Source of the DNA: Isurus oxyrinchus
Lineage: Eukaryota
Direction: 5' to 3'
DNA length: 64,000 nt
NCBI GenBank assembly: GCA_026770705.1
Contig: JANJGN010000323.1
Coordinates: 62,001-126,000 of the forward strand
Below the pieces are notes generated by a model. That model had not been told where the DNA came from and did no database searches. It saw only the letters and a program-made list of their open reading frames with translations. Each line of letters starts with the position of its first letter. Position 1 is the first letter of the stretch. The position numbers and the translations under genes were made by a program. Of the stretch, positions 1 through 58,475 are shown piece after piece.

Positions 1-35
1 TCCCAGATATTTCCTCAGCTTCTAACTCTGAAGTT
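1..35 (-). other. 5'UTR part of the signal-peptide exon of a fourth Siglec gene (D) that continues off the left edge; mirror of gene C
   Basis: Positions 1-35 are the reverse complement of 41971-42005, including the acceptor (CT at 36-37). The ATG would lie just outside the window. Confidence 0.75.
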
Positions 36-443
36 CTGAAAGAGAAAGGAGTTAATGAGACCTCACCTCTTGTCCGAATGCTCTTGAGAGATCAGAACTG
101 CTTTTAGACAATATCTTCACAGACAAATTTGATTCTCTGTGGGATGATAGGTGCTCTGCAGAGAGTTACAAGGCTTTAAGAAAGAAAAACACTGAAGGAC
201 TTGCATTTCTATAGCACCTTTCACCACCTCAGGACACCCCAAAGCTCATGTCCCTGCTCTTCTCTCATCCCTTGAGCTAGAAAGATGTTCTGTACAACAG
301 ACTTGAGCCTCACACCCAGATCTCAATAATCAGTAGAAATCTTTCAAAGGCATCAATCATTGGAATCTGTCTTTATAAAGTCACAACATCAACAAAGGAG
401 GGTGTTGGTGGTGGAAGTGAATTCCAATCATTCCGTTACTTAC

Positions 444-585
444 CCAGGACCTGTCCGACTGCTCGCCTGGGGATGAACTGCCCACACGCTCTGCTTGGGC
501 TGAATGACCTCTTCCTGTGCTGATCCATCTGTGTATTTAATTAGAAAGGATTGATGTGTCTCTGTGAGACAAAATGAGGAAGTTG
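444..585 (-). promoter_or_regulatory. Putative promoter and non-coding exon 1 of gene D
   Basis: Conserved block with a PU.1/ETS-like AAAATGAGGAAGT (571-583), ending in the donor CCTGG|GTAAGT. Confidence 0.55.
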
Positions 586-4405: not shown

Positions 4406-4654
4406 TCAGTTTTGCTTGAATCTGATCTGTGCGTATTCTGTCTCCTCTTCCCTGTGGACAGACCCATCACCACTGGGCACCCTGAAGACTTGGGGATTGG
4501 CGTAGAGAAGGTCGCCGGGTTTGTTGTGATTCCAATGTCCAGCATCGCCTCCCACTGGACCTTCAGAGAGATCCCGGGGAGCTGGGGTCTCCCCCTCACT
4601 AGTTGTGTCTCTGGTTGTGTTCCGGGCCTCAGTAATCAGCACGTTCTGTTTACC
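4406..4654 (-). CDS. Gene A terminal cytoplasmic exon (LLYANP; TEYAQI)
   Basis: 249 nt to the TGA; two Tyr motifs placed as in CD33-related Siglec tails. Confidence 0.85.
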   Translation of the reverse strand, partial: GKQNVLITEARNTTRDTTSEGETPAPRDLSEGPVGGDAGHWNHNKPGDLLYANPQVFRVPSGDGSVHREEETEYAQIRFKQN

Positions 4655-7600
4655 CTACAGGGAAATGGAAACAGAAGACATCCTCACATCATTTACTGGC
4701 ACTGATAGGGTTAAATTATTGTGCAGCCGCGTTAGGGTCAGTCGTGTCTCAGTTGGTTTAACTCTGTCTCTCATATCATATAAAAGAAACCACCTATGAC
4801 AGGGCAGCACTCCCTCAGTACTGACCCTCCAACAGTGCAGCACTCCCTCAGGACTGACCCTCTGTCAGTCTCGCACTCCCTCGGTAATGTCTCTGGCGAG
4901 TGCCGGCTTGGATTCTGCACTCAGGTGCCTGACGTGAGGCTCATTAACATGAACCTTGTAATCAGAGAGAGGATGAGAGGGAAGAGAAAGAGAGAAAGAG
5001 AGAGATAGGGTGTTATTAATCTATTAATGTATGTAATGTAAGTGGAAATTGTCATTTTAAACAGGGGTTTAGTCTGTGGGTGTGTCTGTGAGAGTTTTAA
5101 TTGGATTAAAGCCAGCCAGTCTGGGTACTTTGATGTCAAGTAGTTTTGAGATGTAAACAAAGAGGTAAAGGGGTAATTTGCATTTTTAAACAGAGCACTC
5201 AATGTCTGAAAGTGAAACCTTAAACGAATCAATGTTTATATTACTAATAATATTGATACGATGAAGGGTGGAGTTCAAAGGTCCTGATGATTCAATGAGA
5301 ATTTACATTCAAAGAGAAGAGCTGGGTATAACTTGAGCAGTTTTGTGTGTGCAGAGCAGAGGCTTGTAACATCAAAGCAGCTGTAAGCCTTCACCTGTCT
5401 GCAAAGGAACCAAAGTGAAAGGAACCTCATTTGGAATTTGTGAGGTGAAAATGCTTTGCTTGGAATCTGCTTAAAGTCTATGGGTTGTCTTAGAGGAGAT
5501 TAGTTTGGGAATTTGTTAAAAAGTTATGATAATACTAGTGTTTAGCCATGTGCATATGTTTAACTTGTGTAAATTAATAAATGTCTCATGTAGATTGATA
5601 TAAAACCATCTCGAGAACTGGTGGTCTTATTCCTGAATTTAGAGCTGCATCTCAAACATTCCACTGGGAAATATAGGTTATGACAGTTGTTTAAAGTTTC
5701 CCTCTGGGATTTTAAACAACAGCCTTTACCAGTTGCTGTGTCATAACAGAGAGACAGCATGATACTGAACCATTGCTGACTCCACAGGTACAAATCAGTG
5801 GGTCACTGGGCTGGGAATCTGGGACATGTGTTGTCTACACACTGAGATTGAAGCTTTGGAGTGAGTGTAAACAGCTCCTGTACCTGGTGCTTCACAGAGA
5901 GTGGACTGGGGGTCAATGCAATGTCACTGGTCCCTGAAACTCTCTCCTCCATCGCTGTCTTTCTCCTGCAATAACACAATATCACACTGTGGTTATCATA
6001 TAGCAGAGAGTCAGTGCAGCACAGACACAGAGCCCACTGTAACCTTCCACCAACAACTGGACTGTCTGTTTAAATCACTTCTGCACAAATCACAGAATCA
6101 AGAAGCTTGACACCATCCACAACAAAGCAGCCCGATTGATCAACACCCCATCCACCACATTAAACATTCACTCCCTCCACCACGAACACACAGTGGCAGC
6201 AGTGTGTGTACCATCTACAAGATGCACTGCAGCAACTCAGCAAGGCTCCTTCAACAGCACCTTCCAAACCCACGACCTCTACCATCTAGAAGGACAAGGG
6301 CAGCAGACACATGGGAACACCACCACCTGGAAGTTCCCCTCCAAGTCACTCACCATCCTGACTTGGAAATATATCACCGTTCCTTCACTGTCGCTGGGTC
6401 AAACTCCTGGAACTCCCTCTCTAACAGCACTGTGGGTGTACCTACACCACATGGACTGCAGCGGGTCAAGAAGGCAGCTCACCCCCACCTTCTCAAGGGG
6501 CAATTAGAGATGGGCAATTTAATAACGGCCTCACCAGTGACAGTCACATTCGATGAAAGAATTTAAAATCTCACAGCTCAGGAGGAAGCCACTCAGCCCA
6601 TCGTGCATGTGCTGGCCCTTTGTAAAAACTGTCCAATTAGTCCTAAGCAAATGTTTATATTAAAATCAAGTTAAATCTTCAGACTTACTTTCTCACACAG
6701 ATGAAGATGAAGATTCCAGCCAGGAAAACACTCAACATGATCCCAGCCGTGAACAATCCTACTGTCCATTTACTGGAGTCTCTACCTGTAAAAACAGCCA
6801 TTAGTTACTGCACTACAGGTTTACAATGATGCTCCGATGTATCTCGAGAAGCGATACACTCACTCAGTGTTTAAATACTCATTCTCGGGCAATGCTGACA
6901 TTTATTGTCCATCCCTAGTTTCCCCTTGAGAAGATGGTGGGGGGTCTTCCTCCTGAACCACTGGTTTGTCCCAAACTGGGAGACCAGTTCAGAGGGCAGG
7001 TCAGAGTTAACCATGTTGGTGTTTGAGACTGGAGTCACATATACACCCAGACCTGTTAAAATGGACAGGTTTCCCTCCCTTAAGATCATTAGTGACCCAT
7101 ATTATATATGTAATTTCTATATATATGTATCAAATAACCTCAGTAAAATAATAAATTATCACCTCAATTTCACGCTGTTGTTTGTGGGATCTTGCTGTGT
7201 ACAAATCAACTGTTGCGTTTCCTACATGACAACAGTGAGCTCACTTCGAAACTGCTTCATTGGTTATCGAGCGTTTTGGGAATTTCTAAGCATTTTATCA
7301 ACACAAGTCTTGCATTTCGATGTAATCAATCTAACATTTATATATAATATTTATCAATGTGATCCCTATAACATTAATGTATAATATTTAGCAATGTAAT
7401 CTATGTAACATTTATATATAATGTTTCTCGATGTAATCTATGTAATGTTTATATATAATATTTAGTCGTTTGGGAGGAGACCCTGAGTATTGCTGAGAAA
7501 GGACATTTTGTCAAAGCTTTCTGTCTTGCACCCAATCAAGCAGCTTATCTGGGGGAGAGGGTTCCAGATTTCCACTCCCCTTTGTGTGAAGAAGTGCTTC

Positions 7601-10600
7601 CTGACATCACCCCCTGAATGGCCTGGCTCCAATTTGACCAAGTGTTGCCATTGTCACATGAGGTCAGGTGATTCAAAGCTTGGTCAAAGGGGTAAGTTGT
7701 ACACAGCATCTTAGAGGAGGTAGAGAGAGAGGTGGAGAGGTTGAGGGAGGGAATTCTCGAGTTTAGGGATCAATCCAGCTGAGTGGAGATCGATCCTGAG
7801 CGATTCTGTCACCTTTGACCCACAGATACACTTTGAACATGGCTTCCCCATGTGGGTTTTGAACTGAGCAGGATGCCATCACTCCCCCCTCATCCTGGGG
7901 TCTCATCAGGGCGAGGGAACCAGTCACCAGATGCCCATCTCTGACCTGCCACGACACAAAACCTCCGTGTGTTTGGTTACCACTGATGTTTGCACTGGGC
8001 AGGTGCCAGGTGAGGTCTCCCGGTGGGTTGGATTCGGCCACACAGACACAGGTGACCCCCTCTGACCTCTGAGTGCACTCCGATTGCTGGGAAATCTCCG
8101 GCTTATCTGAGGAGGGAAGGACAACAATGAGACAACGTCTTGGCAAAGTTAGAGCGTAAGATAGAATCTTCACACTGAAACATTCATTCCTGCCTTTGTT
8201 ACCTCCGCACTCGACTATCCCAACACTCTCCTGCCCGACCTCCCATCTTCCACTCTCCATAAACATCAGCTCATCCCAAACTCTGCTGTCCCCATGTCCT
8301 AACTCACACCGAGTCCCGTTCACACATCACTCCCTGTTGGTCACTGAGCTACACTGGCTCCCGGTCCGACAATGACACAATTTTAAAATTAACATCGTTT
8401 CAAATCCCTCATTACCCCCTCCCTATCTCTGTAACCTCCTCCAGCCCCTATAACCCTCCCTATCTCTGTAACCTCCTCCAGCATCTACATCCCTCCGAGG
8501 TCTCTGCGCTCCTCCAATTCCGGCCTCTTGACCATCCCCCGATTCCTATCGCTCCACCATTAGCGGCCGTGCCTTCAGCTGCCTGGGCCCCGAGCTCTGG
8601 AATTCCCTCCGTAAACCTCTCCATTTCTATCTCTCTCCTCATTTCAGACACTCCTTAAAATCCGGCCTCTTTCTCTGAGCTTTCAGTCCCTGTTCTAATA
8701 TCTCCTGATGTATCTCGGAGAGGCGCAGGGTGAAAAAAGCAGGGAGGTGATGCTAGTTATGCTAAACCACAGCAAGGAAGCTGCCCTCAGACAGAAAGTG
8801 TTTGAGTTTTAAGCAGAGACAGGGGGAGTAAAATGCTTACATTGTACGTTCAGGTGGGTGATGTTGGAGGTGCTGTTACCCACCGGGTTCCTCGCTGTGC
8901 AGTAGAAACCTGCATCATTCTCCCGTGTTACAGGAGTGAAGGAGAGAGTGCGGCTACTTGTGTTTAACTGGGTGCTGGTGTTCCCCTCGATCCTGAACCA
9001 GGTGTAATGAGATATCGGTGGGACACTTTCACTGGAGCAGGTTAATGTGATATTGCTTCCCTCTCTTATCCCACCTGAGGAACTGCTGATGGACACCATC
9101 GTCTCCTGTGGGGGATCTGGAACAAAGACAGAGAACAATCAGCAGATAATCCCCACACCCCACAGCTCTCCGAAATCTCTGCGCTCCTCCAATTCTGACC
9201 TCTTGGACATTCTCCCATTCCCATCTCTCCACCATTGGCGGCCGTGGCTTCAGCTGAGAAACCCTCCAGTCCAGTCACTAGTGCGGAGTTCAGATCCCCT
9301 CCCACATTCTTTCTCTGGGACATCGATGACTGTTTCGATGCTGCTTCATGCTCAGTCTGGACCTGGGAAGATTTATCTATTTTGCTTCCAATTTTCCCCC
9401 TCCATCATTCTCACAGGGTCCATCTCTGACACTTCCCTTCCCTTCCTTGATCTCCCTGTCTCAACTTCTGGTGATAGACTGTCCACCAATATCCATTACA
9501 AACCCACTGACCCCCACACAGACCTCGAATTCAGCTCCTCACACCCCGCTTCCTGTAAGGACTCCATCCCATTCTCTCAGTTCCCTCGCCTCTGTCGTAT
9601 CAGATCTGATGATGCCACTTTCCAAAACAGCCCTTCTGACATGTCCTGCGTCTTCATTAACCAAGGTTTCACACCCATGGTGGGTGACGGGGCCCTGAAC
9701 CATGTCTGGCCTATCTCCCATGCATCCGCCCTCACACCTTCCTCTCCCTCCCTGAACCATGATGAGGTCCCCCTTGTCCTCACTTATCACCCCACCAGCC
9801 TCCGCATTCAAAGGATCATCCTCCGCCATTTCCATCAACTCCAGCATGATGCCACCACCAAACACATCTTCCCTTCACCGCCCACTGTTGGCAATCCATA
9901 GGGATCGTTCTCTCCAGGACACCATGGTCCATTCCTCCATCACCCTCAACACCTCAACCTCCACCCATGGCATCTTCCCATGCAATTACAGAAGGTGCAA
10001 CACCTGCCCCTTTACTTCCCCCCTTCTCACCGTCCAAGGGCCCAAACACTCCTTCCAGGTGAAACAGCATTTCACTTGCGCTTCCCTCAATTTGTTCTAC
10101 TGCATTCGCTGCTCCCAATGCGGTTTCCTCTACATTGGAGACACCAAACGGAGATTGGGTGACAGCTTTGCAGAAGACCTTTGGTCTGTCCACAAGCATG
10201 ACCCAGACCTCCCTGTCACTTGCCATTTTAACCCTCCACCCTGCTCCCATGCCCACATGTCTGTCCTTGGCCTGCTGCATTGTTCCAGTGAAGCCCAACG
10301 CAAACTGGAGGAACAGCACCTCATCTTCCAACCTGGCACTTTACAGCCTTCCGGACTGAATATTGAGTTCAACAATTTCTGGTCATGAACTCTGTCCTCG
10401 ATCTTCACTGCTTTTTGAACCCTTTTTTATGTATTCGTTTTAATTGTTTTATTTGTTAACTGTTTTCCACTTATTTTTATTATTATTATTTGAAATTCAT
10501 TTCCATTTTTATTGATTGTTTTATCCGCAGATTTTAGTCTATTTTCGATGTTTATTCCCTCCACTGTCCCCTCCCCCTGCCACACCCCCACGAGGGCCAT

Positions 10601-13600
10601 CTGTCTCTTTCCAGAGTGCTTACCCTGGTCCGCCCATTATCACACTCTGCTTAATGTCACCATTAGCACCTCCTTTATCCAATACCACCACTGTTAACAA
10701 CCCATTGACCTTTTGTTTATGACATCTTCCACAATCTCTCCATTGCCTCCACCTATCGCTGGTTTTCTATCCAGCTCCACCTGTCCCATCGCCCCCCCTT
10801 AGACAGGATATATTTCACCACATGTATACTTCCCTTTAGCTCTGAAGAGGAGTCTTACGGACTCCAAACGCTAACCCTGTCTTTCTCTCCACAGATGCTG
10901 CCAGATGCTCAGAATCAGCTGGATGGACAGAAAGACCAATGAGTGGCTTAGATCAAGAGGAGATGTTCAGCAATTAAAAGGGTTGTTCAGGACAGTTAGA
11001 GAGAGAAAGGTCGTCAAGTACGGAGATTGGAAACGAAGACCTGACAGCCTTGTCCTGACAACCATTGAAGGAGAAACTGAGAGCAAAAACAGAAAGGGAG
11101 AGGAAAAATTGGATGTGTGGATAACGTGGACTGAGCGAGGATTGAAGAAAACTGGATTAAAAACAACACGATCCCAATGGCTCCACGGAGACCACGGAGA
11201 CAACAAACAAACAAATGTATCTCCACACTCACATTCCACAGTGATGGTTATGAACCCCTCCACTGCTCCATGTTCATTCTCTGCCACACACTGATAGTCA
11301 CAACCTGGGCCCCCTCTGACCTATCAGGTTGGGATAAACAATCCCAAGGGTCAATACAAGGAAGAGCTCTCCCTGGTCAATATCACTCATTAGAAAAGGA
11401 CCAGTTTTGTCTTCAAGTGATGTTTGTGGGATCTTGCTCTGCACATTATATCCTAATACCGCTAATATAGAATAAAGGATGTCCATACTTACATTGTACA
11501 GTCAGTACGAGGGTCCGCTCCGATGAAACAGATGGATATCTCACTATGCAGCTGAGAGTGTGTCCGTGGTGTTTGAGTGATGGGATCAGGGTCAGAACAG
11601 AAGTATAGGTCAGAGTGACACCATGCTGAGTTACAGTGTTTGACACTGATCCAGGTACGTCAGTGGGAGTGTCCCAGGTTAAGACAGGTGCTGCTGTTCC
11701 ATTGCACGTTGTGTTGAAGGTGCAGCTTACATCCACACGCTTTCCTGCAATAATTTCAGCAGGGAATATCGTGGGTTTATCTGTGAAATCTAACAGACAG
11801 AGAATGGATCCTTTTAGAGAAATATAACATGAAGCGTCAGCTCAAATAGAAACCACAGACCCACAAGAGAAAGCACTTTTACAAGGATGATATCAGAACT
11901 GAGATGTTTCAACGATACTGATAGACTGTTAGACACAATTAGAGTGATCAATGGGAGTGGAATACATTTAATCATTGATATTAAAGTGAGTATTAGAGTT
12001 TGCTTTAGGACTGAACTGGAAGTAATCACGAGGTTATTGAGAATTAGACAGTGTGTTATAATAAGCTGTGTTTTGTGTTAATGTGTAAATGTCACAGTTT
12101 GTGTTATTTCCCATTGAGTGCTGAATGTGAATTGTTGAGTAATTATAACACAGCACTTACCAGAAACGTGAAGCTGGGTTACAGGGTAATAGTTATGGCT
12201 CGGACCATTGTCAAATTCTATTCTGAAAAAATAAGGTCCTTCATCTTCCCGTCTGATGTTGTTTATAATCAGGGAACAGTCACCATCTTTCAAGTCTCCA
12301 GACAGCCGGGTCCGATGGTGGTACCGTGGTAACTCGTGACTGTGATCCTTGGAGTGAAAGGCAATGGGAGCCCAGGGAATCTGATTCTCATTATTAAACC
12401 AGACTCCACCTCGCGGTTGGTTTTCCAGACACGATGGATAACTGTAATGACATGGAATCTGTACACACGAACCTTCCTGTGCTGTCACCTCTCGTGGAGT
12501 GTCACCTTTCCACTCTTGTGAGGGTTCAGCTGGGGAGAGAAATCTCAATATTTAACTCTGGATGGTTTGTGGATCCACTGAACCCGATATTTACAGATGA
12601 GGCTGAATTGGGGGGATGGTCAATACTGAGGAGGACTGCAACAAATTACAGGAAGATATACATTCTGATGAAGAATCATACGGACTTGAAACGTTAACTC
12701 TGTCTTCCTCTCCACAGATACTGTCAGACCTGCTGAGATTTTCCAGCAATTTTTGTTTTTGTTACAGATTTCCAGCATCTGGAGAATTTTGCCTTTATAT
12801 TACAGGAAGATATTAATTAACTTGCAGAATGGGCAGGTCATTGACAAATGAATTTCTACGTTAATAAATGTGAGGCATTACATTTTGTTCAGGAGAATGA
12901 GGAGCTTGTATCTTACCTCGAAAATAAGAATCTAATTGGGAAAGAGGAACAACGTGATCTGGGGCAGAAATACAGGAATCAGTAAACGTGGGGACACAGG
13001 TTAACAAGGGGATTAAACATACATACTAAAGACTCGAGATTATTTCTCCAGGGATTGAATTGAAAAGTAGAGAAGAGATGTGAAACTTGTCCTGAACCTT
13101 GGTCTGACTGCACCTGGAGTCACGTGTGCAGTTCTGGTCCCCATATTGTAAAAAGGATGTGGAGACACTGGAGAGGGTGGTAAAAAGCTTCACAAGGATG
13201 ATCTCAGCAATGTGAGGCTTTACCTATCAGGAGAGGCTGAACAGGCTGGGACTCTGTTCTCTTGAACAGAGAAGGTTGAGGGGTGGCCTCATTTGACCTT
13301 TGAAGTAATGAAAGGTTTTGATCGAGTAGACATGGAGAGAGTGTTTCCACTCCTCACAATGAAGAAAACCAGAGGCTGACAATATAACATCCTCACTAAT
13401 AAATCCAATGGGGAATTCAGGAGAAACTTCTTTACCCAGAGAGTGGGGAGAATGTGTGGTTCAAGAATCACTTCATTGGCTGTGAAATTGATTTAGGATT
13501 GTCCTGAAGTGGTGAAAGGCGCTATGGAAATGTGAGACTTGCTTTTGTATTTTGAAAGCAGGTTTCCAAGGATGAGATGGGAACTGAGAGGTAACAACAA

Positions 13601-23045: not shown

Positions 23046-23049
23046 TTTA

Positions 23050-25250: not shown

Positions 25251-25351
25251 GTGAACAGTCGATGGCCCTTCAACCACATTCTTGGCACGCAAAGGGTTAA
25301 CTGTTTTCTAACTGTGCGAGGCAAAGAGCTGCTTTCTCACTTGGTACCAAG

Positions 25352-26600: not shown

Positions 26601-26640
26601 ATGATCGGGAAATCTTACTTCCTCCTGTCACTTCTCCAAG
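26601..26640 (+). CDS. Gene B signal peptide exon
   Basis: ATGATCGGG...CCAAG|GTAA. Confidence 0.85.
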
Positions 26641-41579: not shown

Positions 41580-42012
41580 GTAAGTAACGGAACGATTGGA
41601 ATTCACTTCCACGACCAACACCGTCCTTTGTTGATGTTGTGACTTTATAAAGACAGATTCCAATGATTGATGCCTTTGAAAGATTTCTACTGATTATTGA
41701 GATCTGGGTGTGAGACTCAAGTCTGTTGTACAGAACATCTTTCTAGCTCAAGGGACATGAGCTTGGGGACATCCTGAGGTGGTGAAAGCGGATATAGAAA
41801 TGCAAGACCTTCATTGTTTTTCTTTCTGAAAGCCTTGTAACTCTCTGCAGAGCACCTATCATCCCACAAAGAATCAAATTAGTCTGTGAAGATATTGTCT
41901 AAAAGCAGTTCTGATCTCTCGAGAGCATTCAGACAAGAGGTGAAGTCTCATTAACTCCTTTCTCTTTCAGAACTTCAGAGTTAGAAGCTGAGGAAATATC
42001 TGGGAGTGGACA

Positions 42013-42052
42013 ATGATCGGGAAATCTTACTTCCTCCTGTCTCTTCTCCAAG
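42013..42052 (+). CDS. Gene C signal peptide exon
   Basis: ATGATCGGG...CCAAG|GTAA. Confidence 0.85.
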
Positions 42053-47401: not shown

Positions 47402-47440
<39 letters not shown>

Positions 47441-48352
47441 CAGAAACACACACAATCTCAACTCACACAAGCACACACACACACACATGCATAGACAGAC
47501 ACACGTGCGCACACACACACAAACACACATGAGTACGTGCACACACACAGATCCTTATTTTACAGAAACATACACACACACAAGCCAACACACACATACA
47601 CACACAAAAACATGTGGGTTCCCTCTCCTCTCCCAGTGCTGCACTGGAGTCTCAGTATCAGCTCCGAATCTGTGTTGAAGGAAGGTAAACTCCAGATCAT
47701 CAAGACACTGAACTGGATGGAGCAACCTCCTGAACAGTGAATTGTAGATTTACCCCTCAGTGCTCCATTGGTCAAATACAATTCATTGCCTTTGAAGCCC
47801 TTGGGGACATCCTGAGGATCTGAAAGGGAGTTTCCTGCATTCTAGATGGACACCTCCACTGGTGGGAGAATGTAACTGCAGTGTGACAGTTTACATAGGC
47901 AGTGCCCGTTGTAAATGTGAAATAAGTTCTTATCCTGAGGGAATGTACCTGGAAATGCATTCAGACATCAGATACAGAGACATGATGCATGGAGTCTTGC
48001 TGTGCACTATATTTGCTCATATTAAAATCTTTCTATGTTTATAGATGCACCACGGAATCTCTCAGTTACTTCTCTTGGTGTGATTAACGCTTCATCGATC
48101 GATGTAATTGAGGGGAATTCTGCAGTGATAATCTGCTCTGTCGAGAGCTTCCCAGCTTCTAACCTGACGTGGCGACATCTTAATGTCCCAATGAACAGAA
48201 CAAATTCGAACAATGAGCTGTGGTTGGTGATTCCTCACGTTACATCCAGGGACACTGGAGACTATCAGTGTGTGGCAGAGAATGAACATGGAGCAGTGGA
48301 GGGGTTCATAACCATTACTGTGGAACGTGAGTTGCTGCAAACTTCAACATCA

Positions 48353-48411
<59 letters not shown>

Positions 48412-50355
48412 ACACTACTCATAAACATACACACACATTCACTCATGCACAGAAATATACACAAAGACACACTTACATATGCGCAAACACATACACACAC
48501 GCACACACAGACGCATGCGTGCATACTCACACAAACACACTCACATGTGCAGAAACACAAACACAAACACATACACACACATGAGGTCCCTCTCCTCTCT
48601 CAGTGCCGCACTGGAGTCTTGGTATCAGCTCTGATTCTGTGTTGAAGGAAGGTAAACTCCAGATCAGCAAGACCCTGAATTGGATGAGCAACCTCCTGAA
48701 CAGAGAATTGTAGATTTACCCCTCAGTGCTCCATCGATCAAATACAATTCATTCCCGTAAATCCCTTGGCAAAATCCAGAGGATGTGAAAGTTTCTTTCA
48801 TTCTAGGTGAACAGCACCTCTACTGGTGGGAGAATGTAACTGCAGTTTGACTGTTTACATAGGCAGTGCCCATTATAAATTTGACAGTGGAAGTTATATG
48901 GAGGGAAGGTACCTGGAATTGCATACAGACATCAGATACAGAGAGATGATGCATGGAGTCTTGCTGTAAATTGTGCTTGCTCACATTAAACACTTGATTT
49001 GTTTTTAGATGCACCACAGGATCTCTCATTTACTTCACTTGAAATGATTAATGCTTCATCGATCAATATAATTGAGGGGAATTCTGCAGTGATAATCTGC
49101 TCTGTCGAGAGCTTCCCAGCTTCTAACCTGACGTGGCGGCATCTTAATGTCCCAATGAACAGAACAAGTTGCAACAATGAGCTGTGGTTGGTGATTCCTC
49201 ACGTTACATCCAGGGACACTGGAGACTATATGTGTGTGGCAGAGAATAAACATGGAGCAGTGGAGGGATTCATAACCATCACTGTGGAATGTGAGTGCAC
49301 ACAGACATCTACATCACACACACACACTCACACATGCAAAAACACTCATGTGTAGACACAAACATGCACGCTTACACACAAACATACGTTCAAACACATA
49401 CACAGAAACACACACAAACTCAACTCACACATACAATCATTCATGCGCACACGTAGACACACGTATACAGACACACTCCCTCAAGCACAGATGTACACAC
49501 GCAGACCCACATACACACGCGTGCCCACACATGCGCAGACAGACACGCGCATACACACAAATACAAACTCACTTGTGCAGAAATACACACACACACACAA
49601 GTGTGAGATCCCTCTCCTCTCTCAGTGCTGCACTGGAGTCTTGGTATCAGCTCTGATTCTGTGCTGAAGGAAGGTAAACTCCAGATCAGCAAGACCCTGA
49701 ATTGGATGAGCAACTTCCTGAACGGAGAATTGTAGATTTACTCCTCAGTGCTCCATCGATCAAATACAATTCACGGGCTTTCAATCCCTTGGGGGCATCT
49801 TGAGAGTGTTAAAGGATGTTTGTTTCATTCTAGGTGGACAGCAACTCTGTTGCTGGGAGAATGCAACTGCCGTGTGACAGTTTACATAGGAAGTGCCCAT
49901 TATAAATGTGACAGTATTTTTTCCTGCGGGAAGGTACCTGGAAATGCATTCCAACATCAGATACAGAGAGATGATGCATGGAGTCTTGCTGTGCACTGTG
50001 TTTGCTCACAGTAAAATCTTTATTTGTTTTTAGATGCTCCACAGAATCTCTCAATTACTTCTCTTGATATGATTAATGCTTCGTCGATCAATATAATTGA
50101 GGGGAATTCTGCAGTGATAATCTGCTCTGTCGAGAGCTTCCCAGCTTCTAACCTGACGTGGCGACATCTTAATGTCCCAATGAACAGAACCAGTTCCAAC
50201 AATGAGCTGTGGTTGGTGATTCCTCACGTTACATCCAGGGACACTGGAGACTATCAGTGTGTGGCAGAGAATGAACATGGAGCAGTGGAGGGGTTCATAA
50301 CCATCACTGTGGAATGTGAGTTAACACAAACTTCAACATCACTCACACGCACACA

Positions 50356-50394
<39 letters not shown>

Positions 50395-51395
50395 ATGTAG
50401 GCACACACATGCATAATTATACACACACAGTCATACACGTACAAACACATACACAGGAAAATACACACCCATCTCAAACACACACATATTCATGCCCACA
50501 CATAGACACACACATGCACATACTCTCACTCATGGACAGACGTAGACACACAGACACACGCGCATGCACACACACAGATACATGTGTGCATACACACACA
50601 AACACACTCACATGTGCAGTAACACAAACACACACATACACACGCGTGAGTTCTCAGTGCTGCACTGGAGTCTTAGTATGAGTTCCGATTCTGTGTTGAA
50701 GGAAGGTAAACTCCAGATCAACAAGACCCTGAATCGGATGAGCAACCTCCTGAACAGAGAATTGTAGACTTACCCCTCAGTGCTCCATCGATCAAATACA
50801 ATTCATTGCCTATCAAGCCCTTGGGGACATTCTGAGGATGTGAAAGCAAGCTTCTTTCATTCTAGATGGGCAACACCTCTGCTGGTGGGAGAATGCAATT
50901 GCAGTGTGACAGTTTACATAGGCAGTGTCAATTATAAATGTGCCATAAGACCTTATCCTGAGGGAAGTTACCTGGAAATGCATTCAGACATCAGACACAG
51001 AGACATGATGCATGGCGTCTTGTGCACTATGTTGCTCACGTTAAAATCTTTATATATATATATAGATGCATCATTGAATCTCTCAATTAATTCTCTTGAT
51101 ATGATTAACGCTTCATGGATCAATATAATTGAGGGGAATTCTGCAGTGATAATCTGCTCTGTCGAGAGCTTCCCAGCTTCTAACCTGACGTGGCGACATC
51201 TTAATGTCCCAATGAACAGAACAGGTTCCAACAATGAGCTGTGGTTGGTGATTCCTCACGTTACATCCAGGGATACTGGAGACTATCAGTGTGTGGCAGA
51301 GAATGAACATGGAGCAGTGGAGGGGTTCATAACCATCACTGTGGAACGTGAGTTAATGCCAACTCAACATCTCTCTCACACACGCACACACACAC

Positions 51396-51431
<36 letters not shown>

Positions 51432-53740
51432 GCACACACACACACACACACTCATGTGTAGACACATACGTGCACATTTACACACACAGTCATACACGTG
51501 CAAAAACAGACACAGAAACACACATACACTCAACTCACACGCACACACTCACACAGGCACACATATAGACATACACATGCACTCACGTTCACTCATGCAC
51601 AGACGTATACACAAAGACACACTCACATATGCGCAAACACATACACACACGCACACACAGACACATGCGTGCATACACACACAAACACACTCACATGTGC
51701 AGAAACACAAACACACACATACACACGCATGAGGTCCCTCTCCTCTCTCAGGGCTGCACTGGAGTCTTGGTATCAGCTCCGATTCTGTGTTGAAGGAAGG
51801 TAAACTCCAGATCAACAAGATCCTGAATTGGATGGAGCAACCTCCTGAACAGAGAATTGTAGACTTACCCCTCAGAGCTCCATCGATCAAATACAATTCA
51901 TTGCCTATCAAGCCCTTGGCAAAATCCTGAGGATGTGCAAGGAAGTTTCTTTCATTCTAGGTGAACAGCGCCTCTACTGGTGGGAGAATGTAACTGTAGT
52001 TTGACTGTTTACATAGGCAGTGCCCATTATAAATTTGACAGTGGAAGTTATATGGAGGGAAGGTATCTGGAAATGCATACAGACATCAGATACAGAGAGA
52101 TGATGCATGGAGTCTTGCTGTGCATGCTGCTTGCTCACATTAAAAACTTTATTTGTTTTTAGATGCTCCACAGAATCTCTCAATTAATTCTCTTGATATG
52201 ATTAACGCTTCATCGATCAATATAATTGAGGGGAATTCTGCAGTGATAATCTGCTCTGTCGAGAGCTTCCCAGCTTCTAACCTGACGTGGCGACATCTTA
52301 ATGTCCCAATGAACAGAACAAGTTCCAACAATGAGCTGTGGTTGGTGATTCCTCACGTTACATCCAGGGACACTGGAGACTATCAGTGTGTGGCAGAGAA
52401 TGAACATGGAGCAGTGGAGGGGTTCATAACCATCACTGTGGAACGTGAGTTAACATAAGCTTCAACATTACTCTCACATATACACAGACACACTCATACA
52501 CACACACTCACACAAACACACACACACACACACGTGCACACAAACAAGCATTCATGTGCAATCCCACATGTCCACAGGTGTGTACGCCTGCATGCTCACA
52601 CACAGAAGGAAACATACACAGAATCACACGTGTGCTTGCTCACACACACACACACAGACATGTGTGAGTTGTCTGTTCTCCCTGTGCTGCACTGGAGCGT
52701 TGCTCCAGATTCTGCTCTGAAACACTGACGACATCAGCTGAACAAGACCCTGTATTGGACGAGCAGCCCCCTGCACAGAGAATTGTAGGTTTATCACCCC
52801 ATTATTCTAAAGCAATTCCTCCACTGTCAAATCTCCATAAACATCCTGATGATTTGAAAGACATTTTCTTTTCTTCTAGCCCGACAGTGTCTCCTCTGGT
52901 GGAAGGCTGTAATTACAGCGTGAAAGTTTACATATCCACATGCAGCAAGAGCTGAACAACACTCAGCTTGGGCTGAGACAATTAATGCATCACAAGTACC
53001 AGGCAGTGATCATGTCCAACAAGAGAGAATCTAACCATCTCCCCTTGATGTTCAGTGAGTTTACTATCACTGAATCCCCCACAATCAACATCCTGGGGGG
53101 TGTTAACCAAACAACTAACTGGACCGGCCATAAATACTGTGGCTACAGGAGCCGGTCAGAGGCTGGGAATCCTCTGGAGGTGAAAAACTCACCACCACCT
53201 CCTCAAGGGCAATTAGGGATGGGTAATAAATGCTGGTCTAGATAGATACAGCCACTTCCCATGAATGTACAAAAAGAAAAACGCCGGCAGTGACCATTAT
53301 AAAAGTTGACATAGAAACTTAAAACAGGACAGAAACCTTGAAATGCACATAGACACCAAATAGAGAGAGATGATACCTGGAGTCTTGCTGTGCACTGTGT
53401 TTGCTCACAATGAAACCTTTATTTGTATTTAGATGCACCACGGAACCCATCAATTACTTCTCTTGATATGATTAACGCTTCATCGATCAATATAATTGAG
53501 GGGAATTCTGCAGTGATAATCTGCTCTGTCGAGAGCTTCCCAGCTTCTAACCTGACGTGGCGACATCTTAATGTCCCAATGAACAGAACAAGTTCCAACA
53601 ATGAGCTGTGGTTGGTGATTCCTCACGTTACATCCAGGGACACTGGAGACTATCAGTGTGTGGCAGAGAATGAACATGGAGCAGTGGAGGGGTTCATAAC
53701 CATCACTGTGGAACGTGAGTTACTGCAAACTTCAACATCA

Positions 53741-53786
<46 letters not shown>

Positions 53787-56700
53787 TAGGCACACACATG
53801 CACACTTATACACACACAGTCATACACGTGCAAACACATACAGAGGAATATATATACACAACTCACACACACACACAATTTCATGCCCACACATAGACAC
53901 ACACATGCACATTCACTCACTCTTGGACAGACATTGACACACAGACATGCGTGCATGCGCACACACAGATACATGTGTGCAGACACACACAAGCACACTC
54001 ACTTGTGCAGAAACACAAACACTCACACACTCACACACATACACAAATGTGATTTCCCTGTCCTCTCTCAGTGCTGCACTGGAGTCTCAGTATCAGCTCT
54101 GATTCTGTGTTGAAGGAAGGTAAATTCCAGATCAACAAGTCCCTGAATTGGATGAGCAACCTCCTGAACAGAGAATGGTAGATTTACCCCTCAGTGCTCC
54201 ATCAATCAAACATTGCCTGTCAAGCCATTGGCGAAATCCTGAGGATGTGAAAGAAAGCTTCTTTCAATCTAGATGGACAACACCTCTACTGGTGGGAGAA
54301 TGCAATTGCAGTGTGACAGTTTACATAGGCAGTGTCCATTAAAAATGTGGCATAAGATGTTATCTTGAGGGAAGTTACCTGAAAATGCATTCAGACTTCA
54401 GATACAGAGACATGATGCATGGAGTCTTGCTGTGCACTATGTTTGCTCACGTTAAAATCTTTATATGTTTTTAGATGCACCACGGAATCTCTCAATCAAT
54501 TCTCTTGATATGATTAACGCTTCATGGATCAATATAATTGAGGGGAAATCTGCAGTGATAATCTGCTCTGTCGAGAGCTTCCCAGCTTCTAACCTGACGT
54601 GGCGACATCTTAATGTCCCAATGAACAGAACAAGTTCCAACAATGAGCTGTGGTTGGTGATTCCTCATGTTACATCCAGGGACACTGGAGACTATCAGTG
54701 TGTGGCAGAGAATGAACATGGAGCAGTGGAGGGGTCCATAACCATCACTATGGAACGTGAGTTNNNNNNNNNNNNNNNNNNNNNNNNNNNNNNNNNNNNN
54801 NNNNNNNNNNNNNNNNNNNNNNNNNNNNNNNNNNNNNNNNNNNNNNNNNNNNNNNNNNNNNNNNNNNNNNNNNNNNNNNNNNNNNNNNNNNNNNNNNNNN
54901 NNNNNNNNNNNNNNNNNNNNNNNNNNNNNNNNNNNNNNNNNNNNNNNNNNNNNNNNNNNNNNNNNNNNNAACATGCGTTCATATTTAATCCCATGTCTGC
55001 ACAGGTGTGCACGCCTGTATGCTCACACACAGAAGCATACATACAGAATCACACGTGTGCTTGCTCACACACACACAGACATGTGTGAGTTGTCTGTTCT
55101 CCCTGTGCTGCACTGGAGTGTTGCTCCAGATTCTGCTCTGAAACACTGACGACATCAGCTGAACAAGACCCTGTATTGGACGAGCAGCCCCCTGCACAGA
55201 GAATTGTAGGTTTATCACTCAATACCTCATTATTCTAAAGCAATTCCTCCACTGTCAAATCCCTGTGAACATCCTGACAATGTGAAAGACATTTTCTTTT
55301 CTTCTAGCCTGACAGTGTCTCCTCTGGTGGAAGGCTGTAATTACAGCGTGACAGTTTACATATACACACGCAGCAAGAGCTGAATAACACTCAGCTTGGG
55401 CTGAGAAATGACAATTAATGTTCATGCCGCACAAGTACCAGGGAGAGCTGTTCCTTGTATTGACCCTTGGGATTGTTTATCTCAACCTGATATGCAGAGG
55501 GGGCCCAGGTTGTGACTATCAGAGTGTGGCAGAGAATGAACATGGAGCAGTGGAGGGGTTCATAACCATCACTGTGGAATGTGAGTGTGGAGATACATTT
55601 GTTTGTTTGTTGTCTCCGTGGTCTCCGTGGAGCCATTGGGATCGTGTTGTTTTTAATCCAGTTTTCTTCAATCCTCGCTCAGTCCACGTTATCCACACAT
55701 CCAATTTTTCCTCTCCCTTTCTGTTTTTGCTCTCAGTTTCTCCTTCAATGGTTGTGAGGACAAGGCTGTCAGGTCTTCGTTTCCAATCTCCATACTTGAC
55801 GACCTTTCTCTCTCTAACTGTCCTGAACAACCCTTTTAATTGCTGAACTTCTCATTCTTTAATTGATAAATATTATATATAAATGTTACATGGATTACTT
55901 TGAAATGCAACACCTGTATTCATAAATTGCTTAGAAATGACTAAACATTCAACAGCCAATGAAGCATTATCGAAGTAAGCTCACTGTTGTAAAGGAGGAA
56001 ACACAGGTACTGATTTGTACACAGCAAGATCCCACAAACCACCGTGTCTTAATGACCTGATCGGCGATTATTTCAATGAGGTTGGTTGTTACATGTGTAG
56101 AGACTACATACCCTTTAGGGAGGGAAGCATGTCTCGATGTGGATGTGACTCCAGTCTCAGACACCAACATGGTTAACTCACACCTGCCCTCTGAACTGGT
56201 CTCCCAGTTTGGGACAAACCAGTGGTTCAGGAGGAAGACCTCCCACCACCTTCTCAAGGGAAACTAGGGATGGACAATAAATGTCAGCATTGCCCGAGAA
56301 TGAGTATTTAAACACTGAGTGAGTGTATCGCTTCTCGAGATACATCGGAGCATCATTGTAAATCTGTAGTGCAGTAATTAATGGCTGTTTTTACAGGTAG
56401 AGACTCCAGTAAAGGGACAGTAGGATTGTTCACGGCTGGGATCATGTTGAGTGTTTTCCTGGCTGGAATCTTCATCTTCATCTGTGTGAGAAAGTAAGTC
56501 TGAAGATTTAACTTGATTTTAATATAAACATTTGCTTCAATGTTCTTTCCTGAAGTCGGTGATTGTTTCCCTTGTGTTAAGCGCCAGATGCCTCTCCGTA
56601 ACTGGTCTCTTTATCCGTTATGATCCAGACAGTGTTTTTCATTGCCCGTTATCCAGATGAATAATAATCAGTTGCTGTGATCTGGAAGGTGCTGCCTGAA

Positions 56701-58475
56701 AGGGCAGTGGAAGCAGATTCAATAGGAACTTTCAAAAGGGAAATTGGATAAATACTTGAAGGGGGAACATTTGAAGGGCTATGGGGGGAAGAGCAGGGGT
56801 GGAGGGGGGGTCAAAGATATGGCGTGTTATTATAATGATATTATACCTTAGGCTTATTTACTGTATAAGACAGAAAACACCAAACACTCATAGGGGATTT
56901 GGTGAGAATGTTAATGATTTGTTTATCAGGACTCAGCAGGAGAACAGTTATACATACGGAGAAAGCTTGAAGGCATCAGAGCTGTGAGTGTGTGCTCTGC
57001 TCAAAGCAAAAGTCAAACTGAGATTGGATCACATGACACACTTCCATTATAGTGATGTCACGCTGATACCCCTTATTGGAACAAGAGACAGTCCAGTCAT
57101 TGGTGTAAGTTACAGTGTGCTCTGTGTCTGTGCTGCACTGACTCTTTGCTATATGATAACCACAGTGTGATATTGTGTTATTGCAGGAGAAAGACAGCGA
57201 TGGAGGAGAGAGTTTCAGGGACCAATTACATTGCATTGACCCTCAGGTCACTCTCTGTGAAGCACCAGGTACAGGAGCTGTTTACACTAACTCCAAAGCT
57301 TCAACCTCAGTGTGTAGACAACACGTATACCAGATTCTCAGCCGGGTTACACACAGATATCGCCCTGTGAAGTGAGCAATGGCTCAGTGGTCAGCACTGT
57401 CTCTCGCTCCCTGCCTCTGTCTCCCTCCATCACTCGCTCTTTGACCAGAAACCTGAACACAATAATGACAAGGCACCTGATGTCAGTAGTGAGGGAGTGC
57501 TGCACTGTCAGAGGGTCAGTAGTGAGGGAGTGCTGCACTGTCGGAGTGTCAGTACTGAGGGAGTGCTGCACTGTCGGAGGGTCAGTACTGAGGGTGTGTT
57601 GCACTGTCAGAGGATCAGTACTGAGGGAGTGCTGCACTGTCAGAGGGTCAGTACTGAGGGAGTGCTACACTGTCAGAGGGTCAGTATTGAGGGAGTGCTG
57701 CACCGTCAGAGGATCAGTACTGAGGGAGTGCTGCACTGTCAGAGGGTCAGTATTGAGGGAGTGCTGCACTGTCAGAGGGTCAGTATTGAGGGAGTGCTGC
57801 ACTGTCAGAATGTCAGTACTGAGGGAATGCTGCACTGTCAGAGGGTCAGCATTGAGGGAGTGCTGCACTGTCAGAGGGTCAGTACTGAGGGAGTGCTTCA
57901 CTGACAGAGGGTCAGTACTGAGGGAGTGCTGCACTGTCAGAGGGTCAGCACTGAGGGAGTGCTGCATTGTCAGAGGGTCAGTACTGAGGGAGTGCTGCAC
58001 TGTCTGATGGTCAGTATTGAGGGAGTGCTGCACTGTTGGAGTGTGATAGAGATTAAATTATAAAGAGAGAGAGAAAGCGAGAGAGAAAGAGAGACAGAGA
58101 AAGAGAGTGAAAAAAAGGCTTAAACCCACTGAGACACGACTGACACTAATGAGGCTGCACAATAATTTAACCCTATCAGTGCCAGTAAATGATGTGAGGA
58201 TGTCTTCTGTTTCCATTTCTCTGTAGGATGAACAGAACTTGCTGATTACTGAGCCCCGGGAAACAACCAGAGACACAACTAGTGAGGGGGAGACCCCAGC
58301 TCCCCGGGATCTCTCTGAAGGTCCAGTGGGAGGCGATGTTGGACATGGGAACCCCGACAATACCGCCGACCTTCTCTACGCCAACATCAACTTTTCAAAG
58401 CTGCCCGGCGGTGACAGGACTGTGCACAGGAGCGAGGACACGGAATACGCACAGATCAGGTTCCAGAAAAACTGA
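42013..58475 (+). CDS. Siglec gene C (multi-exon model): signal, V, C2, at least 7 repeated C2, TM, two cytoplasmic exons with ITIM and ITSM; 1034 aa with 7 repeats
   Basis: Exons 42013-42052, 45536-45901, 46760-47056, seven 282-nt phase-1 exons, 56397-56493, 57187-57268 and 58227-58475 are open and phase-compatible. The gap at 54764-54969 may hide more repeats. Confidence 0.85.
43235..43350. repeat. About 28-bp tandem repeat TAGACAATGAGGATCCAAAGAGATTC, 4 copies
   Basis: Visible directly. Confidence 0.8.
45536..45901 (+). CDS. Gene C V-set exon (VGL-type; [13 protein letters not shown])
   Basis: 366 nt, open; all three Siglec V cysteines and the essential Arg are present. Confidence 0.9.
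46376..46410 (+). ncRNA. Putative minimal hammerhead ribozyme motif in a Penelope terminal repeat
   Basis: CTGATGA-A-GAGTC-ATACG-GACTC-GAAA-CGTT: conserved core boxes, 5-bp stem II and palindromic AACGTT; variants at 12665, 14700 and 28191 (+), and near 22910 and 24060 (-). Confidence 0.5.
46760..47056 (+). CDS. Gene C Ig domain-2 exon
   Basis: 297 nt. Confidence 0.88.
47276..47368 (+). other. Internally deleted (93 nt, in-frame) copy of the repeated C2 exon
   Basis: Both splice sites are intact; 189 nt were removed between two GAGGGG hexamers. Confidence 0.75.
48045..48326 (+). CDS. Gene C repeated C2 exon R1
   Basis: 282 nt, phase 1-1; [14 protein letters not shown]...GDYQCVAEN. Confidence 0.85.
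49009..49290 (+). CDS. Gene C repeated C2 exon R2 (extra Cys in NRTSC)
   Basis: 282 nt. Confidence 0.85.
50034..50315 (+). CDS. Gene C repeated C2 exon R3
   Basis: 282 nt. Confidence 0.85.
51066..51347 (+). CDS. Gene C repeated C2 exon R4 (acceptor is (TA)nG, possibly weak)
   Basis: 282 nt. Confidence 0.8.
52163..52444 (+). CDS. Gene C repeated C2 exon R5
   Basis: 282 nt. Confidence 0.85.
53433..53714 (+). CDS. Gene C repeated C2 exon R6
   Basis: 282 nt. Confidence 0.85.
54475..54756 (+). CDS. Gene C repeated C2 exon R7
   Basis: 282 nt, followed by an N gap. Confidence 0.85.
55509..55580 (+). pseudogene. 3' remnant of the repeated C2 exon (Cys to Ser)
   Basis: Same remnant and flanks as in A and B. 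Confidence 0.7.
56397..56493 (+). CDS. Gene C transmembrane exon
   Basis: 97 nt; [32 protein letters not shown]. Confidence 0.85.
57187..57268 (+). CDS. Gene C cytoplasmic exon 1 (contains TNYIAL)
   Basis: 82 nt. Confidence 0.8.
57480..58040. repeat. 33-bp minisatellite in the last intron of C
   Basis: About 17 units, versus 2-3 at the homologous sites in A (about 4800-4880) and B (about 37180-37260). Confidence 0.9.
58227..58475 (+). CDS. Gene C terminal cytoplasmic exon with ITIM LLYANI and ITSM-like TEYAQI
   Basis: 249 nt to the TGA. Confidence 0.87.
   Translation, partial: DEQNLLITEPRETTRDTTSEGETPAPRDLSEGPVGGDVGHGNPDNTADLLYANINFSKLPGGDRTVHRSEDTEYAQIRFQKN

Follow-up and report, generated by a model that had tools for sequence, protein, structure and literature searches.

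A Tandem Array of Siglec Genes with Three Tail Classes in a Lamniform Shark, Likely an Immune Paired-Receptor Family

INTRODUCTION

MAG (Siglec-4) is a conserved, single-copy neural gene, and human CD33-related Siglecs number about 10. Paired receptors, Siglec-5/14 and Siglec-11/16, are included among the mammalian CD33-related Siglecs in two studies (PMC5701461, PMC4384638); the second gives 4-5 CD33-related Siglec genes in three primates and links Siglec number to lifespan in mammals. For the chicken CHIR genes, a published survey lists 103 loci (22 are inhibitory, 25 are activating, 15 are bifunctional and 41 are pseudogenes) and describes expansion by block duplication (PMC1458963).

Here we analyse a stretch of 64,000 nucleotides from Isurus oxyrinchus (the window), which a first-pass annotation had read as a lineage-specific cluster of Siglec genes in a probable shark, with three ectodomain architectures on a shared transmembrane (TM) segment and tail. 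We found no paper treating the relatives of these genes as a family, counting their copies or separating their tail classes; a chondrichthyan Siglec survey may exist in Angata 2004, Bornhofft 2018, Cao 2009 or supplements such as whale shark Supplementary file 9.

RESULTS

The three gene models of the window are confirmed as real. Exon limits were set by AG/GT flanks (Table 1), and the exon models and open spliced frames specify type I membrane proteins with V-set followed by C2-set domains. Gene A, on the minus strand, has the order signal peptide (SP), V, broken V (368 nt), V, C2a, C2c, C2d, TM and two tail exons, and must skip its frameshifted V exon. Gene B (plus strand) runs SP, broken V (374 nt), V, C2a, C2d, without C2c; it is probably damaged, because its first V exon is frameshifted and the acceptor of the second lacks a pyrimidine tract. 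Gene C, also on the plus strand, has SP, V, C2a and seven 282-nt C2b exons, lacks both C2c and C2d, and is the sole clean gene in the window, with an open spliced model of 1034 aa.

Table 1. Coordinates of Siglec-family features in the window
Feature	Positions	Strand	Basis
Fourth family gene, truncated; 5' part of signal exon region, runs on left of the window	1..89	-	
Exon-like element U, lying upstream of the signal exon of the fourth gene; sequence of the first tail exon of YxN-class genes	440..528	-	
Gene A last tail exon (LLYANP, TEYAQI, stop)	4406..4654	-	spliced joint in contigs
Gene A first tail exon	5884..5965	-	spliced joints in contigs
Gene A TM exon, uncharged, ITIM/ITSM class	6689..6785	-	exon model
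Gene A C2d exon, homologous to MAG domain 5	7813..8106	-	exon model + alignment
Gene A C2c exon, homologous to MAG domain 4	8841..9116	-	exon model + alignment
Gene A C2b remnant, 72 nt (3' end + donor)	11233..11304	-	
Gene A C2a exon, Siglec domain 2	11493..11789	-	exon model
Gene A internal V exon; Arg present, additional BC-loop Cys	12161..12529	-	exon model
Gene A V exon with frameshift and intact splice sites, 368 nt	14197..14564	-	
Gene A first V exon; Arg present, Phe at B-strand Cys position	17480..17845	-	exon model
Gene A signal peptide coding exon	18925..18964	-	exon model + contig joint
Gene B signal peptide coding exon	26601..26640	+	exon model
Gene B first V exon; frameshift near end	27343..27716	+	
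Gene B second V exon, open; 92-bp copy of 30445-30536 in place of acceptor pyrimidine tract	29772..30140	+	
Gene B C2a exon	30954..31250	+	exon model
Gene B C2b remnant	31443..31514	+	
Gene B C2d exon	33878..34171	+	exon model
Gene B TM exon	35274-35370	+	exon model
Gene B tail exons (LLYANP, TEYAQI)	36094-36175, 37408-37656	+	exon model
Gene C signal peptide coding exon	42013..42052	+	exon model
Gene C V exon; essential Arg, Siglec cysteines	45536..45901	+	exon model + alignment
Gene C C2a exon	46760..47056	+	exon model
Gene C C2b mini-exon, 93 nt, internally deleted, in frame	47276..47368	+	
Gene C C2b exons, seven in tandem, all open and 282 nt long; homologous to MAG domain 3	48045..54756	+	
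Gene C C2b exon starts	48045, 49009, 50034, 51066, 52163, 53433, 54475	+	
Gene C C2b remnant copy	55509..55580	+	in 418-bp block 98% identical to A and B
Gene C deletion junction, C2c + C2d lost relative to A	55853..55862	+	
Gene C TM exon	56397-56493	+	exon model
Gene C tail exons (LLYANI ITIM, TEYAQI ITSM)	57187-57268, 58227-58475	+	exon model

Much of the first-pass annotation stands. The genes are Siglecs (the top 17 PDB matches are all Siglecs) and the DNA is from a shark; signal, domain-2 and TM exons are near-identical among A, B and C, as claimed (97.5-100%, 97.3-99.0% and 99-100%); gene B does lack the exon at 8841-9116, which is single copy on the whole 646-kb contig; the loss of C2c and C2d from gene C, placed at an intron jump near 55850, is now located between 55853 (A 10960) and 55862 (A 7358); and the proposed 1-1 phase holds for all intact Ig exons, each of a length divisible by 3. 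Other statements needed amendment. The 72-nt C2b remnant, first described for A and B, has a copy in C as well; C carries, beside the seven full C2b exons described, the deleted 93-nt one; and sharing of TM and tail holds for the TM exons but not for the tails, the last tail exon of C being only 85.6% identical to those of A and B. The V exons of the three genes are 82.5-97.6% identical (15 pairs).

Contigs of public runs, presumed to be RNA (none is recorded as such) and derived from related genes, not necessarily the window copies, span the SP-V, V-C2a, C2b-TM, TM-T1 and T1-T3 joints at the modelled boundaries, with GT..AG ends. No V-to-V joint is among those listed from these contigs. An extra tail exon of gene A at about 4900-4955 was ruled out, as contigs splice 4653 straight to 5883.

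The window holds three of roughly 500 tandem family copies in the assembly; many of these copies are damaged, and some may have been counted double. Exact-word patterns, each with a reversed-pattern control of 0, counted 479 domain-2 (C2a), 634 V and 510 TM exons in an array of about 14 Mb, hundreds of copies where a cluster of three genes had been described. The array also contains about 100 truncated V exons that belong to a second family, and satellite DNA flanks its anchored edge. In the sampled annotation 18 of 48 TM-bearing units are fully intact, as are 4 of 13 units with arginine in the membrane (Arg-TM). Within 1.3 Mb annotated, 37 units display 20 architectures, each of which can be derived from a five-domain plan like that of MAG, in agreement with the modular gain and loss of phase 1-1 exons first proposed. 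A horn-shark relative (P0061) can be aligned with MAG over D1-D5, each domain with its counterpart (E 2.7e-61); all five domains are retained in none of the 37 sampled units and in none of A, B and C. Four-gamete incompatibility climbs with distance from 49% to 64% (permutation p 0.035). Unequal crossing-over and gene conversion between blocks of 97-99% identity would lead to gain and loss of exon cassettes, an exchange that would be tolerated because all Ig exons are in phase 1-1, and that would yield new head, stalk and tail combinations together with many pseudogenes, by birth and death.

It might be argued that the copy number is mainly an effect of the assembly, with both haplotypes, and possibly false duplications, present as separate scaffolds. 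The array is spread over 17 smaller scaffolds besides C34, and some of these may be alleles, because C121 and C150 are collinear over 38 kb (99.1% and 98.5% identity over 25.6 and 12.5 kb) and LSR is found on two small scaffolds with identical scores; uncollapsed haplotypes could halve the counts. However, in-cis duplicates on one gapless contig are likewise 98.0-98.9% identical over 7-21 kb, and therefore such identity need not mean alleles. Scaffold C52 alone has 153 TM exons, and C52, C71 (first 2 Mb) and C323 display no collinearity beyond chance (254 markers in all), with shared marker runs of at most 3-4, the same as when shuffled. Furthermore, 62 of 68 intact V exons are distinct sequences, and 28 full TM exons lie in cis on the gapless 646-kb contig, which upholds the original view of the copies as paralogs rather than alleles. 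Allelism explains a factor of two at most, and we regard an assembly effect as a very improbable main source of the array. A long-stalk gene on C121 and C150 was dropped as single-copy proof of allelism, as 16 full-length V copies exist. Gene-family surveys probably undercount this region because it is mostly on small separate scaffolds.

Three TM/tail classes exist across the array, rather than the single one ascribed to the family: ITIM/ITSM-type (188), Arg-TM with a short tail (216; the pattern has 217 matches including 1 off the array) and YxN-type (106). Genes of the inhibitory-motif and Arg-TM classes are interleaved in array positions, and only the ITIM/ITSM class occurs in the window. 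The gene C tail has a canonical ITIM, LLYANI, with TEYAQI, and those of A and B have LLYANP with TEYAQI; among 29 last tail exons the Y+3 residue is I in 11, P in 17 (including A and B), which gives YANP in place of the canonical proximal motif, and T in 1. All three tail types also terminate proteins of other sharks. The membrane Arg lies at about the same depth as in P0177 and P0239, which we take to be Siglec-14-like proteins. As in paired receptors, ectodomains are similar between the inhibitory-motif and charged-TM classes of the same cluster, with V identity of up to 99.2%: for 4 of 12 distinct Arg-TM V exons the nearest V belongs to another tail class (identity up to 99.2%), and for 8 it belongs to their own. 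Between gene C and a YxN-class gene the V identity is 99.2%.

The essential F-strand Arg aligns with that of Siglec-5, CD33 and sialoadhesin and is found in all intact V exons of the window and in 57 of 67 intact V exons sampled. The Siglec cysteines (the intra-sheet B-E pair and the V-to-domain-2 pair) are matched by alignment, except that the first V of gene A is without the B-strand Cys. Up to seven V exons, all in phase 1-1, stand behind one signal exon, and these could be alternative cassettes used one at a time on a shared stalk, so that gene A would give several one-V receptors. One contig does splice a first-type V straight to C2a, a joint that a single-V paralog explains equally well. 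Against such use, an extra BC-loop Cys that would stay unpaired in a one-V product is found in 29 of 31 inner V exons and in only 1 of 36 others (0 of 17 first, 1 of 19 single), and the Arg is absent from 9 of 17 first V exons and 1 of 50 others, correlations whose Fisher p-values overstate independence because they rest on related copies. We consider alternative cassettes decidedly unlikely; it is likely that the V exons of a tandem set are joined in a single chain, in which an inner V would present a cysteine mimicking domain 2.

Divergence is concentrated in the V domain (dN 0.120, versus 0.025 in C2a) and within it in the loops (0.23, versus 0.04 in the framework). Pairwise NG86 estimates of dN/dS are 0.73 for V, 0.85 for loops, 0.42 for the V framework, 0.80 for C2a and near 1 for tails, and no exon class has a value significantly above 1. 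Rapid evolution, as first suggested, is seen in turnover and loop divergence but, by these pairwise estimates, not in positive selection, and the values fit relaxed selection too. Such values raise the possibility that amplification was mostly neutral, in a segmental-duplication array located beside satellite DNA, with a small number of Siglec genes of importance and the majority of copies carried along under relaxed selection. The 30 of 48 sampled TM units that are not fully intact, the dN/dS of tails and C2a, the truncated second-family V exons carried along and the satellite DNA at the anchored edge are all consistent with this. On the other hand, by these estimates the V framework is under purifying selection while the loops diverge, the three tail classes and two CC' loop types (alignment judged by eye) recur in other sharks and rays, and family transcripts are spliced. 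Mostly neutral amplification is, on balance, unlikely.

The family has 120 relatives at 53-91% V identity, many labelled MAG-like in RefSeq, where names are automatic best-hit labels. It spans sharks and rays, and its expansion is independent of the mammalian one; because of this distribution it is not lineage-specific, contrary to what had been supposed, although its copies are recently homogenised. In a tree of 46 of 78 rows (LG+G4; 32 near-redundant or long-branch rows, including the Siglec-15-like outgroup, were dropped), built without MAG, CD22 proper, Siglec-1 and Siglec-15, and with group labels checked by name for 20 added rows and guessed from sequence for the remainder, the family forms a separate clade (support 100/100). 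In this tree without MAG, neither sisterhood with the bony-vertebrate CD33-related clade (p-AU 0.35) nor a grouping with shark CD22-like proteins (p-AU 0.08) is rejected; nesting among mammalian CD33-related Siglecs is rejected (p-AU 1.6e-5). Domains 1-2 score 128 bits to CD33 and 108 bits to MAG, which makes a sister-group relation to CD33-related Siglecs possible; the parallel first drawn with these keeps its independent expansion and may go beyond mere parallel.

These comparisons bear on whether the family is the shark MAG lineage, acting in myelin or neural adhesion instead of immunity. The collinear five-domain plan and the MAG-like names would fit this, as would the location: at the one anchored edge, array genes are interleaved with FFAR genes, and human MAG and CD22 sit beside FFAR genes as well (a MAG-CD22-FFAR block). 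However, a 1:1 ortholog of MAG would be single copy, and 479 domain-2 exons were counted here; hundreds of copies, Arg-TM short tails and hypervariable loops are traits of immune receptors; and domains 1-2 score higher to CD33. A neural role as the MAG lineage is, in our judgment, barely credible. Two degenerate motif patterns for true MAG had no match genome-wide, and no MAG V exon was found in C452:60-230 kb downstream of LSR or in C34:15.0-15.6 Mb, results that do not imply absence.

DISCUSSION

We consider it likely that this elasmobranch Siglec family is an immune paired-receptor system, whose members would probably bind sialylated glycans and probably signal off or on by which of three tails they carry. 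Weighing against it are the dN/dS values, the low share of fully intact units, the eight Arg-TM V exons that are nearest to their own class and the YANP motif of most last tail exons. From mammalian Siglec biology we infer that the V domains would bind sialic acid via the essential Arg, that the ITIM/ITSM tail would recruit SHP-1/SHP-2, that the membrane Arg would pair with an ITAM adaptor (DAP12 or FcR-gamma) and that the family is presumably expressed in leukocytes; the YxN tail would take a Grb2-type adaptor. A broader proposal, which we offer tentatively as possible rather than probable, is that sharks have the largest known Siglec repertoire, with 100-250 working germline receptors per genome that combine CDR-like loops, activating and inhibitory tails and head/tail shuffling for broad innate glycan sensing, and share a common ancestor with mammalian CD33-related Siglecs at the MAG/CD22/FFAR locus. 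If this were true, the origin of paired CD33-type Siglecs would move to the first jawed vertebrates, overturning the published view of fish genomes as being without inhibitory CD33-related Siglecs.

With hundreds of Siglecs that bear ITIM, ITSM or Arg-TM features in one array next to FFAR genes, large paired repertoires of this family would prove to be ancient and to have expanded more than once, and their size could match or exceed that of chicken CHIR. Three questions become testable: the point at which MAG and CD33-related Siglecs diverged, the effect of loop variants on specificity for glycans or proteins, and the extension to long-lived sharks of the relation of Siglec number to lifespan given for mammals in PMC4384638.

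The closest described systems each match the shark family in part. Like mammalian CD33-related Siglecs, it has a V-set domain with the essential Arg and Siglec cysteines, a domain 2, in some copies such as gene C an ITIM plus ITSM-like tail, clustered genes, a variable number of C2 domains and ligand-binding exons that are near-identical between inhibitory-type and activating-type genes. Unlike them, it has copies in the hundreds and not in one-digit to low two-digit numbers, as many as seven V domains in tandem, YxN tails as a third class and an anchored array edge beside FFAR genes, whereas the mammalian cluster lies by the kallikrein genes. With MAG it shares the domain order of its full-length form and a neighbourhood matching the human MAG-CD22-FFAR block, but the sampled shark units have lost that full plan and the first two domains lean toward CD33. 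Like chicken CHIR, it combines massive tandem expansion by block duplication with hypervariable ectodomains; however, CHIR are Ig receptors of the leukocyte receptor complex and not lectins, whereas the shark array consists of Siglecs and, counted by copies, exceeds CHIR by a factor of about two to five.

Gene models and domain plan

Self-comparison and exon mapping bear out the three Siglec genes proposed in the first-pass annotation, A, B and C (see table), with their architectures and the exon deletions among them. They cannot be alleles, as all lie on one gapless contig. The spliced model of gene C is open, at 1034 aa, while those of A (689 aa) and B (475 aa) are open only if a frameshifted V exon is skipped. 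Only C is a clean gene: in B the remaining V exon no longer has a pyrimidine tract at its acceptor, and in A the first V exon lacks a conserved Cys. The 72-nt remnant of the C2b exon (a homolog of MAG domain 3, D3) is present in A and B but is not restricted to them as first described; gene C has a copy too, with an additional, internally deleted 93-nt C2b exon. GT..AG joints in contigs of public runs from related animals (four runs, at most two samples, presumed RNA with the type guessed by the tool) link five predicted exon pairs.

A retroelement-like insertion common to A and B lies in the intron between C2a (domain 2) and C2c (D4), beside the C2b deletion. A 33-bp minisatellite is dispersed in introns and intergenic DNA, and a separate repeat of ~43 bp lies between A and B; both yield long spurious ORFs.

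Coordinates of the features discussed (G000, this genome assembly; C323, the contig of the window; other C numbers, other scaffolds)
Feature	Location	Strand	Basis
Gene A	window 4406-18964	minus	self-comparison, exon mapping
Gene B	window 26601-37656	plus	self-comparison, exon mapping
Gene C	window 42013-58475	plus	self-comparison, exon mapping
Retroelement-like insertion	window 9011-11000, 24029-24830, 31842-32897		
33-bp minisatellite	window 19768-21950, 25570-25784, 28953-29517, 57480-58044		
~43-bp repeat	window 23011-25280		
Upstream exon-like element / YxN first tail exon sequence	window 440-528, 19411-19499, 41495-41583; C323:291310-291397		
Arg-TM genes, seven tandem V	G000:C189:686780-712965; C52:3531380-3557561		
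Genes with tandem tail exons	G000:C323:624868-644506 and 224547-243862		
FFAR-like loci	G000:C34:15265279-15266158, 15292739-15293758, 15508783-15509664		
Second Siglec-like family	G000:C121:1419371-1442166; ~119 matches array-wide; C323:8821, 132725		
Divergent Siglec-like clusters	G000:C34:1.1-2.0, 7.54, 10.78-11.18 Mb		

The top 17 of 36 PDB matches to the gene C V domain are Siglecs, with the essential Arg aligned. White shark (91%) and basking shark (90%) provide its closest protein relatives among 120 matches. As all 119 named matches come from sharks, rays or skates, the source animal is most probably a lamniform shark, and the family spans elasmobranchs instead of being lineage-specific as first proposed. 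In a horn-shark relative the domains run V-C2a-C2b-C2c-C2d and align collinearly with MAG domains 1-5 (E 2.7e-61); A, B and C are therefore readable as putative derivatives of a five-domain plan, A by loss of D3 and gain of V exons, B by loss of D3 and D4, and C by loss of D4 and D5 with multiplication of D3.

Size of the array

The gene C V exon has at least 150 genomic matches at 85-100% identity, from 1079 candidates. Exact-word counts across the genome gave 188 ITIM-class, 106 YxN-class and 217 Arg-TM transmembrane (TM) exons (1 of the last off the array), 479 C2a exons and 634 V exons; as 61 of 81 sampled V exons contain the V word, the true number of V exons is nearer 800. C2d (D5) has 64 near-identical copies. 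Matches lie on 17 smaller scaffolds and on C34, and the array spans ~14 Mb, summed from known scaffold lengths and furthest matches. The window's contig, gapless except for masked bases, is array from end to end, with 40 full V, 29 C2a and 28 TM exons.

Scaffolds C121 and C150 are collinear across 38 kb at 98.5-99.1% identity and LSR is present on two scaffolds; the assembly therefore probably contains uncollapsed haplotypes. However, duplicates in cis are 98.0-98.9% identical across 7-21 kb. Against C323, 200-kb samples of C189 and C52 give patchwork matches only. Compared by the order of their TM markers, C52 (153 markers), C71 (73, first 2 Mb) and C323 (28) have runs of just 3-4 markers in common, equal to shuffled orders. 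We take 250-510 units (gene-like groups with a TM exon) as the range per haploid genome. Across the annotated 1.3 Mb, all exons are intact in 18 of 48 TM-bearing units, and 26 retain one or more intact copies of every needed exon, the grouping being automatic, so that neighbouring fragments may be merged. Scaling by class puts the potentially coding genes of the assembly at about 180-255, or at 90-130 should all of them be present twice.

Genes of a second Siglec-like family are interspersed through the array, with a MAG-like V lacking the essential Arg and ~12 tandem C2 domains; 16 of its V exons are full-length and ~100 are truncated at one common point by a retroelement-like insertion. More small clusters on C34 hold divergent Siglec-like genes that have a MAG-D5-like domain; some of these genes have the Arg and others lack it.

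Tail classes and V exons

Class 1 (ITIM/ITSM-type) has an uncharged TM, a proximal YANI or YANP and a distal TEYAQI; class 2 (YxN-type) has an uncharged TM and YEN, YAN and YGN motifs; class 3 has an Arg inside the TM and a tail of about a dozen residues with no tyrosine. Each occurs at the ends of proteins from other sharks. Units that have a signal, a V and a TM exon number 37 and fall into 20 architectures, in which V exons range from 1-7 and C2b exons from 0-8. V exons cross these classes: identity reaches 99.2% between an Arg-TM and an ITIM gene, and likewise between gene C and a YxN gene. However, for 8 of 12 Arg-TM V exons the closest V exon is one of the same class, which counts against cross-class exchange.

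Two Arg-TM genes have seven tandem V exons, the first without the Arg and with a basic and aromatic CC' loop. Two genes on C323 carry both tail exons in tandem, two to four times; these pairs may provide alternative tails with differing tyrosine motifs. An exon-like element (41 copies on C323) that precedes most signal exons by ~450 bp shares its sequence with the first cytoplasmic exon of YxN-class genes, and proteins of sevengill shark and sawshark conserve the encoded tail. A neighbour's 5' exon may have been recruited as a tail by one class, or the reverse.

V exons diverge about five times as much as C2a, and the divergence sits in the BC, CC' and FG regions (dN 0.23 versus 0.04 in framework). 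Four-gamete incompatibility among V exons, high throughout, increases weakly with distance (p 0.035), and inspection by eye finds two CC' loop types again in catshark, sawshark or sawfish; we therefore read the pattern as suggesting old loop variants shuffled onto homogenised frameworks. dS is likewise raised in the three loop regions, and no exon class has dN/dS significantly above 1; relaxed selection on V exons stands as an alternative to loop shuffling. Among related, and so not independent, copies, the Arg is missing from 9 of 17 first V exons of tandem genes versus 1 of 50 others, and an extra BC-loop Cys is present in 29 of 31 inner V exons versus 1 of 36 others. The Cys counts favour putative V-V chains rather than alternative V cassettes; the joints listed from the public-run contigs include no V-V splice.

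Genome position and descent

At 15.13-15.27 Mb of C34, a 19.9-Mb scaffold, four edge genes or fragments are interleaved with FFAR2/3-like genes, with a scaffold gap and satellite DNA to their left; human MAG and CD22 adjoin FFAR genes too. Of three FFAR-like loci on C34, one is broken, and a Siglec fragment lies between the first two. A domains 1-2 profile scores CD33 at 128 bits, Siglec-5 116, Siglec-10 113, MAG 108, CD22 57 and Siglec-15 50. In a domains 1-2 tree (46 rows, none of them MAG), the elasmobranch family is one clade (100/100), apart from the bony-vertebrate CD33-like clade (98/92) and from CD22-like and related proteins (98/94). Topology tests on this tree rejected nesting with mammals; they did not reject a sister position to the whole CD33-like clade (p-AU 0.35) or grouping with shark CD22-like proteins (p-AU 0.08). 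The family is predicted to work as CD33-related Siglecs do; by descent, judged on a tree without MAG, it is a candidate member of that group.

Comparison with known systems

Our search turned up no study of a shark Siglec array and no report of an array of such scale; key subscription papers fell outside its scope, so absence from print is unproven. Double counting in the assembly is possible. Many members are already represented in RefSeq by automatic models. In the passages checked, Siglecs come up once in the whale shark genome paper, a teleost study describes inhibitory CD33-related Siglecs as absent from fish genomes, and PMC13262535, PMC7916940 and PMC3338513 have nothing on sharks. The first-pass reading, an immune Siglec family diversifying by exon gain and loss, had the right direction and put the scale too small. 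Judged from sequence, this is a predicted paired immune-receptor array made of Siglecs. The likeness of V exons across tail classes resembles the primate Siglec-11/16 pair, whose likeness is maintained by gene conversion according to PMC5701461. In scale, the nearest analogue is chicken CHIR, for which 103 loci are reported.
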